DNA of 64,000 nucleotides from positions 2,784,001-2,848,000 of the forward strand of contig CAXXTU010000002.1 in the NCBI GenBank assembly GCA_963662655.2, read 5' to 3'. Position numbers: made by a program. Positions within the stretch are counted from its first letter, which is position 1. Each line of letters starts with the position of its first letter. This document shows positions 28,864 to 31,800 of this stretch, in pieces. Origin of the DNA: Candidatus Cloacimonadales bacterium. Its GTDB lineage: Bacteria > Cloacimonadota > Cloacimonadia > Cloacimonadales > JAIOQZ01.

Positions 28864-31800
28864 GGGGATCATGGAGTCGATCGCCTTGAGACCCGTTTGC
28901 AGGGGTTCTTTCACCGGCTGGCGTTGAATAACGCCCAGCGCTTTGCGTTCGATGGGAAAGAATTGATCGGTCTTGATGTCTCCCTTTCCATCGACGGGGT
29001 GTCCCAGCGCGTTGACCACGCGTCCGAGCATGGCGTCGCCGACCGGAACCTGCAAGATTTTGCCGGTTCTGCGGACAATATCGCCTTCCTTGATATAGTG
29101 TGTATCGCCGAAAACGATGCAGCCAATGTTGTCTTCTTCCAGGTTGAGCGCCATTCCGTAGATGTCGTTCGGGAACAGCACCATCTCGCCTGCCATCACG
29201 TTTTCCATACCGAAAACGCGAGCGATACCGTCACCGACCATGACCACTTTACCGGTCTCGGCGATGTCGATATCGAATTTAAAACTGTCGATCTTCTGTT
29301 TTAGGATCGAGCTGATTTCATCGGGATGTATTTTCATAATACCCTCAATTTTGCGGTATTTTTTCTTTTATGAATCGTTCGAGATTGTTTTTGACGGAAC
29401 CGTCGATAATCAGCGAACTCGTTTCAGCATGGAAACCGGCAATGAGCTCCGGTTTGATGCGGGTCTTGAATTCTACATTCTTTTTCAGGATGTCTTCCAG
29501 AAGATGGGTTATGTTCTGCATGGTTTGTCCATCGTGCTCTCTCGCCAGCGAAAGCATCACCTTCACGCGTTTGTTCTCATCCAGGATGAAGTCCTCGATG
29601 CAGTTCAACAGCGTTAAGATAATGGAAAAACGACGCTTCTTCACCAGCAGGACGAACAGCGATCTCCAGCGATCGGCGAAATGGAGGTTCTCTGCCAGCG
29701 CTTCAACCAGCTTTTTCTTTCGCGGATACGAAAGGATCATCATGTGGACGGAGCGGATGATTTCCGGATTCCCCGTCAGCACTTCATGCAAGCCGCGAAC
29801 ATCATCCAGCAAATCGTTATGCTCATCGGGAGCGATCAGACTGATGAAAGCCTTGGCGTACCGCTTGGAAATCTCAAAATCTCTCACTTGCTCAACCTGT
29901 CTTGCAGTAGTTTATTGATCAGCTTTTTGTCCGTTTCCGGATCCATTTTATCGGCAATGATTGTTGCAGACACGGATGCGATCATACCGGCAAGCTCTAC
30001 CTCGAGCTCTTCCATGGTACGCTTGCGTACATGGGCTACCTGAGCCTCGGTCTCCTGAACGATATCCTTCTGTTGCTTCTTGGCGCCATCCAGGATTTCC
30101 TTCGCCTGATCCTCGGCTTCGCGTCTTGCGCGGTGCTGCATTTTGCGAATCTCTTCTGAAGATTCGATTAGCTCCTGTTTCTGTTGATCCAGGATTTTGG
30201 CCGCTTCCTCTTTGGAGCGAGCTGCTTCATCGATATCGCCCGATATCTTCTCCGATCTTTCTGTAAGCCATTTCTTCATCGGCTTGTACAGAATCTTGTT
30301 CAGTATGATCAGAAGCAGAACAAAGTTCGCGATAACGATCAAGAGAGAATAATCAATTGTGATCATGTCTTCTCCATTCTCTGAAAATGATTACTGTTTC
30401 GAATGCCGTATCAGGTGGAGAATATCAACAACAGCGCGATAACCAGCGAGTAAATACCGGTTGACTCGGAAACTGCCTGACCGACCAGCATGGTACGCAT
30501 GAGCAAGTTCTGATTTTCGGGTGAACGGGCGATACCTTCACATGCCTTGCCGGCGACGAAACCTTCGCCAACGCCGGGGCCGAGCGCTCCGATGCCCATA
30601 CAGATGCCTGCGCCAAGAAACGCCGCAGCTTTTGCGATGCCTTGTGCCAATGTCATTTCCATTTTTTTCCTCCTGTTTTTTACACAGTCTTGTATGTTTT
30701 CATTACAAATATCTATTCTTTACAGTGCAAAGATCAGCAAGAAGGCGATAACCAGCGAATAGATCGCTGTCGATTCCGATACCGCCGCCCCCAGGAACAT
30801 CGTTCGGATCAGGTTATTCTTCTGTGCGGGAAAGCGTCCAATCGAATCGTTCGCGCGTCCGGCGACGAATCCGATACCGGAGCCGGGGCCGAGGGTTCCG
30901 AGCCCGATGGAGAGTCCCGCGCCGATGTAGGCCGCCATCTTCATCACGATGTTTGCCATGCTCGCGTTTTCCGGCTGGAAGGGAGTTGAGAACATGAGAA
31001 GGAGCGAAACGACCAGCGCGAAGATGGAGCTCGATTGCGAAAGCGCTTGCCCGATGAGCATGTTACCCATCAGAATGTTGGATTGACGCGGGTTGCGCCC
31101 GATAGACCTGCAAGCCTCGCCTCCTGCGTAACCGGCGCCGAAAGCCGGGCCAACGGCACCGAGTCCCACTGCGATACCCGCAGCGAGCAAAGCCGCAAAT
31201 CGATACCACCCGCCTTCAACGACGTCGATGCCGCCGAACAGAAGCAGGAGCGCGACAACGAGGGCGAAGATTCCGCCGGTCTGTGTCGCGGCCTGGCCGA
31301 TCAGCATCGTGCCGAACAGCTTGTCGTAAGCCTTGGGTTGCCTCGATAGAGCAAGGGTTGCCTGATCGGCGATCGATCCGCTGCCGATGCCGCTCGTTAA
31401 CGATGAAATTCCCACGCCGATTCCGGCGCCCAGATAAGCCGCGATCTCTACGATCTCTTTTGTGAATACCATTGATTACTCCGAAATCGCTACACTGATG
31501 TATGAAAGAGCCAGCATGGTGAAGACGAACGCCTGCACCGTACCGACAAAAAGTCCGAAGAACAGGTTCAGCCCGACAGGGAGAACCACAAACTTGACCA
31601 GGGAAGATACCACCAGGATGATAATGGCGCCGCCCAGAATATTACCGAAAAGTCGGAAGGATATCGAAACCACTTTCGCCAGTTCGCCGATAACATCGAG
31701 GATGACCATCGGGGTCACATACCCTTTCAGGTAACCGCCGATTCCCTTGTGCTTGATCGCCGTCGCGTGGACCACGACGCCGACCATGATGCCCATACCC

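Follow-up and report, generated by a model that had tools for sequence, protein, structure and literature searches.

The ion-to-ATP ratio of an F-type ATP synthase is taken as the size of its c ring divided by three. The known natural exception to this ratio is the A. woodii rotor, which has one blank position; its fused subunit c1 sits 1:9 in one ring, the blank is crossed, and ATP is made from 90 mV (PMC9171764). Both double-c hybrid rotors of the F-type and triplicated proteolipids in archaeal A-type enzymes are already known (PMC9171764, PMC7911925, PMC2359735). The Na+ site is composed of Glu65 and Gln/Glu32 of one hairpin (here the acceptor half) and of Ser66, Thr67, Tyr70 and a carbonyl of the neighbour (the donor half), in I. 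tartaricus numbering (PMC2359735, PMC3692424). In fused subunits the preceding hairpin is the neighbour (ProAD supplement, PMC11738941; methods of bioRxiv 10.64898/2026.10.01.756066).

ProAD (PMC11738941) groups c and K subunits by hairpin number, but the logos in the part available stop at two hairpins; Cloacimonadota triples probably stand unremarked in its figures and database files. Two Cloacimonadota genome papers, one of them PMC12590816, refer in their available parts to the F-type enzyme just in general terms, and the available part of bioRxiv 10.64898/2026.10.01.756066 mentions neither triplication nor Cloacimonadota. A literature search, in which subscription papers were thinly covered, returned no description of a three-hairpin c subunit in an F-type operon, of Cloacimonadota c subunits or of the effect of a Gln32-to-Ile change, and no demonstration, in the literature covered, that three blanks are crossed. 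Brandt and Muller 2015 and Matthies 2014 may bear on novelty.

The atp operon and its two c genes

The window analysed was a 64,000-nt stretch of the genome of a Candidatus Cloacimonadales bacterium (GCA_963662655.2; contig CAXXTU010000002.1, positions 2,784,001-2,848,000), and coordinates count along it. A complete F-type atp operon lies on the minus strand (33065 -> 25123) in the order 94-aa ORF-atpI-atpB-250-aa c-83-aa c-atpF-H-A-G-D-C; all features given below are on this strand. The 94-aa membrane ORF upstream of atpI (32781..33065) had no family match and is presumably atpZ/atpQ-like, going by its position. PF03899 was matched at residues 100-188 of a long ORF that is listed as beginning at 33006; the probable start of atpI is 32754, giving a product of 127 aa (32371..32754). 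Family matches identified atpB, encoding the 297-aa subunit a (31476..32369), as well as atpF (subunit b, 29884..30366), atpH (delta, 29345..29887), atpA (alpha, 27829..29337), atpG (gamma, 26959..27816), atpD (beta, 25520..26923) and atpC (epsilon, 25123..25527). Subunit a has an N-terminal extension of ~100 aa, and its Arg239 is invariant in 105/105 aligned relatives. A terminator-like stem with a T run was seen past atpC (25089-25071), and the promoter and terminator scan gave counts no higher than shuffles (11 vs 9.7; 14 vs 14.2).

Between atpB and atpF lie atpE1 (30720..31472), encoding a 250-aa c subunit with three hairpins and six membrane helices (the triple), and atpE2 (30411..30662), encoding an 83-aa c subunit with one hairpin (the single c). 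The initial annotation had placed both genes here, and it is borne out by the coordinates, by three and one PF00137 stretches, respectively, and by the AlphaFold2 hairpins of the triple. The triple begins 3 nt after atpB, and its short ribosome-binding site (GGAG, 31479..31482) is within the last atpB codons. The single c has a strong site (AGGAGG, 30669..30674) inside a 57-nt spacer.

The source genome is 99% complete, and the atp operon is its only rotary ATPase. Searches of this genome gave no further c genes and no match to V/A-type subunit I (PF01496); its two further PF00006 matches are FliI and Rho. The genome also encodes a decarboxylase beta subunit and has RnfD-family genes at two loci. 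An A/V-type K subunit was rejected as an identity for the triple on the grounds of its F-type neighbours and of the PF01496 result. An N-ATPase was rejected as well: such operons have the order beta-epsilon-X-X-a-c-b-alpha-gamma with delta absent or fused (ProAD, PMC11738941), and the order found was I-a-c-c-b-delta-alpha-gamma-beta-epsilon with a free delta.

The triple was folded by AlphaFold2 into three helical hairpins with a mean pLDDT of 95.8. Its nearest solved relative, by sequence (E 4e-29) and by fold, is A. woodii c1 (4bem_J). It is F-type by sequence, with its best NCBIfam scores to F0 c models. The key residues are Q64/Q146/E233. Hairpin 1 (residues 5-79, 31236..31460) has Ser31/Gln64, without a carboxylate, and Phe69 replaces Tyr; hairpin 2 (residues 85-161, 30990..31220) has Ala113/Gln146, also without a carboxylate, and Phe151 replaces Tyr. 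Hairpin 3 (residues 172-249, 30726..30959) has Ile200/Glu233 (Glu codon 30774-30776) together with Ser234, Thr235 and Tyr238. The latter three residues would make a complete half-site for the next subunit, whereas the triple of the source genome is itself predicted to lack a canonical Na+ site. In the single c the two-carboxylate Na+ motif is complete (Glu33, Glu66, Ser67, Thr68, Tyr71); E33 and E66-S-T-x-x-Y71 agree with the earlier description of Glu in both helices and an ESTxxY motif.

Identity among the three hairpins of the triple is 35-44%, and their identity to the single c is 46-62%; a recent repeat was rejected because of the former value. Pooled dN/dS was calculated over 22 close pairs, which include the carboxylate-free family f14, and was 0.051 for the triple, 0.069 for a, 0.099 for b and 0.033 for the single c. 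Purifying selection thus acts on the triple as strongly as on subunit a.

Distribution and ion-site composition

The triple had matches in 129 of the 232 genomes of the phylum, source genome included. Matches were found in 3/98 genomes of family f3 and in 125/133 outside it, in line with the distribution first given (128/231 overall, with the same two fractions; f3 was then called f2). The three f3 matches are single c subunits in an N-ATPase-like gene order, as judged from the ProAD description. V/A-type subunit I has the mirror pattern, with matches in 91/98 genomes of f3, 2/2 of f4 and 3 others, and an F-type enzyme in one Cloacimonadota clade and a V/A-type in the other have been reported (PMC12590816). 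The two distributions and this report uphold the statement that, outside the V/A-type family, the phylum has these two c genes as its standard F-type rotor pair.

A long or partial match to the triple was present in 124 genomes, and one locus each was sampled from 110 of them; the 14 genomes outside the sample comprise 7 full-length matches in f12 and 7 truncated ones. All 110 loci have the triple. The single c is directly downstream in 105, two loci stop at a contig edge, and in three the triple still follows atpB but the single c lies on a different contig. In one locus (G132) the triple is frameshifted and atpB is split; this locus was dropped from the site counts, leaving 109 intact triples. 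A search for related loci among close relatives yielded 43, titled Cloacimonadota or uncultured bacterium, which were kept outside all counts; none of the 43 was from another named phylum.

Sites were read by half-sites. Singles had a complete acceptor half in 105/105 and a complete donor half in 104/105, with Glu (100/105) or Gln (5/105) at position 32 and Ala (104/105) at position 25 of the glycine stripe. Among the 109 triples, a complete acceptor half was found in hairpins 1, 2 and 3 in 57, 0 and 0 cases, and for the donor half the numbers were 0, 0 and 106. Position 32 of hairpin 3 is Ile (105/110) or Val (5/110), and hairpin 2 has Phe at position 70 in 104/110. A canonical Na+ site, which by the ProAD rule needs Gln/Glu32 and Glu65 in the hairpin itself and Ser/Thr-Ser/Thr/Gln-x-x-Tyr in the one before it, was found at hairpin 3 in 0/109. 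The key-residue patterns of the 110 triples were E/Q/E (45), Q/Q/E (30), E/E/E (10), E/Q/Q (9), G/Q/E (5), G/Q/Q (5) and Q/Q/Q (5), plus the one frameshifted gene. Sites were coded as Na (full site), lone E (Glu without its partners) or 0 (no carboxylate), yielding the patterns Na/0/lone E (42), 0/0/lone E (35, source genome included), Na/lone E/lone E (10), 0/0/0 (10), lone E/0/0 (5), Na/0/0 (4) and lone E/0/lone E (3). Family f6 has examples of Na/0/lone E, f14 of 0/0/0 and f17 of Na/lone E/lone E. At least one fused hairpin is without a carboxylate in 99/109 intact triples (Gln64 and Gln146 in the source genome). Going by the residues, the triple would supply one Na+ site, at hairpin 1, in 56/109 genomes and none in 53/109.

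Of Na+ sites within the triple, only one at hairpin 1 therefore appears possible; the Glu of hairpin 3, which pairs with Ile32 and Phe70, is not predicted to be a Na+ site. The initial annotation had stated that only the third hairpin has the ion-binding Glu. E233 is the sole key Glu, but its Na+ partners are absent, so that the statement is misleading; in fused subunits, counting motifs hairpin by hairpin puts sites in the wrong place. The earlier counts for hairpin 2 (Gln in 114/116, E/E/E in 2) did not hold: Gln was found in 100/110 and Glu in 10/110, of which 8 are in f17, read directly in the sequences, and 2 in f13. It had also been proposed that the middle hairpin is almost always inactive and that variation in the outer ones would tune the ratio. 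Hairpin 1 does alter the Na+ count, but a change between Glu and Gln in hairpin 3 does not, and hairpin 2 regains Glu in the 10 cases given above.

A probable mixed ring and its alternatives

The triple is probably part of a hybrid Na+ rotor like that of A. woodii, with one triple per ring and a Na+-free block of two to three positions. The hybrid Na+ rotor put forward at first thus remains the best reading, but a third hairpin acting as a Na+ site is not supported. The triple would work like the A. woodii rotor but falls outside the two-hairpin, one-site definition of that rotor. We infer that the two subunits co-assemble with a single triple in each ring, as well as the use of Na+, the size of the ring, the state of the Glu and the crossing of the block. 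Na+-coupled ATP synthesis would fit the motif and the Rnf and decarboxylase context; the motif is no proof of Na+ use, as Sporomusa ovata has it, yet its ATPase is not Na+-stimulated (PMC9430772).

The inward-facing halves of the triple are decayed, and the outward half of hairpin 3 is kept. This donor half is intact in all 45 triples without the hairpin 1 Glu, which points to the single c as the neighbour and so to a mixed ring. A ring of triples would have no use for it in these 45 genomes; only the single c could. The gap between atpB and the triple has a median of 5 nt and is <=20 nt in 96/103. In 88/104 genomes the single c has the stronger predicted ribosome binding, with a mean of -9.1 vs -6.0 kcal/mol (kin are not independent); the triple has it in 16/104 genomes, and also in the averages of f6 and f5. 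The short gap and the weaker ribosome binding fit about one triple per enzyme, as does its place next to atpB in the three genomes with a split operon. Complex prediction of the triple with four singles gave a weak score of 0.45 against 0.00 for the best control, and this may reflect likeness to 4BEM. The score mark was reached by 116/157 solved and 2/215 mismatched pairs, but at scores of <=0.60 by only 18 of the 157 solved pairs and by both mismatches. Runs agreed in at least 96% of contacts, with a partner pLDDT of at least 75. As the complex model listed no contacts, it is the literature rule, and not a model of this protein, that sets which way the half-sites face.

In the proposed mechanism the triple would insert two to three consecutive Na+-free positions (three in the source genome). 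Both internal interfaces are degraded, with the outward half of hairpin 3 kept and, in about half of the genomes, the acceptor of hairpin 1 too. We propose that the rotor would pass the block by thermal motion and by elastic coupling to F1. Assuming 11 hairpins, fewer Na+ would be used per ATP, 8-9 per turn giving 2.7-3.0 instead of 3.7. The full arithmetic, for one triple and 11 assumed hairpins, spans 8-10 ions per turn, 2.7-3.3 per ATP and 99-194 mV needed; the range of force is set by site count and phosphorylation potential, and 8 ions per turn at 32-50 kJ/mol correspond to 124-194 mV. With fewer ions per ATP, each ion yields more ATP, at the price of a higher driving force. In the fused c10 ring of Bacillus PS3 a single engineered replacement of Glu by Gln stopped ATP synthesis (PMC8809890), so a three-position gap would be hard to cross.

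To follow the fate of the hairpin Glu, subunits a+b of 105 genomes were placed on a FastTree tree; the five loci left out are the frameshifted one and four in which a is missing, split or short. Hairpins 1, 2 and 3 show at least 5, 5 and 9 gains or losses of Glu. In hairpin 3 it is kept in 90/110, always with Ile or Val at position 32, and the alternative is Gln in every intact case (19); the single c never loses its Glu. Ten of the 109 triples have no carboxylate at all, and 6 of these are from single-contig f14 genomes without a V-type I match; three of the carboxylate-free f14 genomes were searched for c genes and have only the pair, and five were searched for RnfD and have it. The repeated changes and the carboxylate-free triples indicate that the hairpin 3 Glu is dispensable; surrounded by hydrophobic residues, it is most likely a protonated, neutral stand-in. 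In f17, hairpin 2 is either Asn32/Gln65 (9 genomes, f16 included) or Ile32/Glu65 (8 genomes, two genera), even between sisters. The joint regain of Ile32 and Glu65 in these 8 genomes counts against a purely inert Glu and would fit a working proton site.

These data bear on a two-ion rotor, which we consider unlikely. In such a hybrid ring the Ile32/Glu65/Phe70 sites of the triple would be H+ sites, each turn would move Na+ on the singles plus up to two H+, and the gap would be shorter. The hairpin 3 Glu, kept in most triples and always with Ile or Val at position 32, and the alternation in f17 both speak for it. Hydrophobic sites favour H+ (PMC7594442). In ProAD (PMC11738941) any Glu whose motif is incomplete is scored as an H+ site, and one of the two-hairpin classes combines an H+ site with a Na+ site. 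However, a stably protonated Glu needs hydrophobic neighbours as well, and a Glu that changed at least 9 times and has no counterpart in 10/109 triples is dispensable.

About as improbable, though a serious competitor, is a role of the triple as a one-copy part for assembly or control, which would seed the ring with AtpI and subunit a, set ring size or register, or brake a sub-population. Rings would then be mostly single c, and the ion count a side effect. The linkage to atpB is tight even where the operon is split, four- and five-hairpin relatives have up to four blanks in a row, which would be harder still to cross, and the stopped PS3 ring fits this role too (PMC8809890). A transient scaffold, however, would have no need of a Ser/Thr/Tyr half-site (106/109) or of a Glu/Glu acceptor (57), and A. 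woodii c1 is a fixed member of a ring that makes ATP (PMC9171764).

It is very improbable that two separate rings are built, with the triple forming its own (e.g. four copies, twelve hairpins), a pump that would have few sites. In the 57/109 triples with Glu/Glu in hairpin 1, each subunit would have one complete Na+ site, as in V-type rings (PMC2359735). This does not account for the 45 genomes, the source included, that have an intact hairpin 3 donor without the hairpin 1 Glu; in 10 genomes the ring would be carboxylate-free, and by its translation signals the single c is the favoured product. That the triple is a duplicate in decay or an assembly error would fit G132 (1/110 loci) but was rejected as next to impossible, given the 109 intact triples, a dN/dS of 0.05 that includes the carboxylate-free lineage, and hairpins that have diverged to 35-44% identity.

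Comparison with known rotors

A profile search of 1.84 billion representatives returned 681 proteins at E <=1e-10. Among the matches listed (149 new and three earlier, some of them fragments), two hairpins were counted in 25, three in 46, four in 71, five in 6 and seven or more in 4. The acceptor of the first hairpin is kept in 55/71 four-hairpin and 5/6 five-hairpin proteins among the matches listed, with blanks inside; Na/0/0/0 was read in 9/71 four-hairpin and Na/0/0/0/0 in 4/6 five-hairpin representatives of the same set. One five-hairpin cluster has a member named Desulfobacterales. These c-like bacterial subunits with two to five hairpins, compared by protein sequence alone, differ from the triple in hairpin number but share its design, which makes the triple one case of a larger series. 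In a bolder version, which we regard as doubtful, the rotor of most Cloacimonadota would have a Na+-free sector of up to three positions (~100 degrees) in which Ile32/Glu65 carries H+. Gearing would evolve by switches between Na+, H+ and blank, and the rotor would be one of a series with two to five hairpins across anaerobic bacteria.

For the mixed ring preferred here, natural variants whose three-position block holds 0, 1 or more carboxylates would reveal the distance that a rotor can cover ion-free. The variants are in genomes with a sole rotary ATPase and would test elastic coupling between Fo and F1 directly. Estimates of ATP yield would change for a widespread anaerobic phylum.

The triplicated proteolipid of Methanocaldococcus jannaschii and other multi-hairpin K subunits of A/V-type enzymes likewise have fused hairpins with loss of ligands (PMC2359735). 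The M. jannaschii enzyme is A-type, whereas the Cloacimonadota triple is F-type by sequence and has a single-c partner. The c11 ring of F. nucleatum (3ZK1) is the counterpart of the single c, in which equivalents of Glu32, Glu65, Ser66, Thr67 and Tyr70 are all present (PMC3692424). That ring consists of one kind of subunit, and the Cloacimonadota single c has Ala25 in the glycine stripe, so that its ring size may differ from c11.

In the hybrid rotor of A. woodii and Clostridium aceticum (4BEM), c1 is combined with c2/c3; there too the gene of the fused c follows atpB and precedes that of the single c in an F-type operon (PMC7911925), and A. woodii is likewise an Rnf-linked anaerobe. In the alignment, A. 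woodii c1 has Phe70 in hairpin 1 and Gln65 with Thr/Thr/Tyr in hairpin 2; outer half-sites are kept and inner ones lost, as in the triple. A. woodii c1 has two hairpins and one blank, whereas the triple has three hairpins and two to three Na+-free positions. The former has a Na+ site in hairpin 1, and the latter is without a site of its own in 53/109, hairpin 1 of the source genome being Ser/Gln. The last hairpin of the triple, unlike that of A. woodii, keeps its Glu but not residue 32, and the single c is of the Glu/Glu type. In Cloacimonadota, by contrast with A. woodii, the pair is standard for most of the phylum.

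Hairpin 2 and the carboxylates of the triple c subunit

In the three-hairpin c subunits (triples) of family f17, the residues at positions 32 and 65 of hairpin 2 (I. tartaricus-style numbering within one hairpin, 65 being the key carboxylate position) were exchanged as a pair between close relatives, either Asn32/Gln65 or Ile32/Glu65. The switch was followed at loci L052, L055, L057-L059, L061-L069, L071 and L078, and in the Glu forms Pro28 was replaced by Thr alongside Ile32/Glu65. The triples of family f14 (L074-L077, L079 and L080) had no carboxylate. They are encoded in single-contig genomes of 1.5-1.6 Mb (G203-G208), in one of which, G203, the atp genes were split, and gamma, beta and epsilon did not come after alpha.

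Subunit a and split or damaged atp loci

Subunit a, encoded by atpB (31476-32369, minus strand), measured 250-344 residues across the window copy and 105 related loci, and in this set its PF00119 domain was preceded by an N-terminal extension of about 100 residues, consisting of a single hydrophobic stretch followed by a polar segment in which a few residues are conserved. Where the atp operon was split in G001, G229 and G209 (L162, L163, L164, L166 and L167), the triple stayed behind atpB and the single c gene lay elsewhere. In G209 the alpha gene directly followed the triple, and a V-type subunit I was present besides the split F-type operon. The triple of G132 (L092) carried a frameshift near its end and atpB was broken into two frames, reflecting either a sequencing error or a damaged copy.

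Genes around the operon

Bactofilin and M23 peptidase genes were located upstream on the same minus strand (33066-36478), the bactofilin gene ending 1 nt ahead of the first ORF of the atp cluster. Beyond them, within the same interval, were genes that we take from their sequences to be parB-, parA- and rsmG-like. A near-identical pair of 411-aa ORFs (21361-22596, minus strand; 47275-48510, plus strand) was presumably transposase-like.

Many-hairpin c-like proteins and N-ATPase-like operons

A profile search of sequence representatives yielded c-like proteins with 12 (P0204), 15 (P0217), 8 (P0285), 7 (P0222) and 5 (P0162) hairpins. Glu was kept in each hairpin of these proteins, which may possibly form whole rings as one chain. 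Within f3, the V/A-type family, three genomes (G073, G020 and G044) carried N-ATPase-like operons, at L168-L170.
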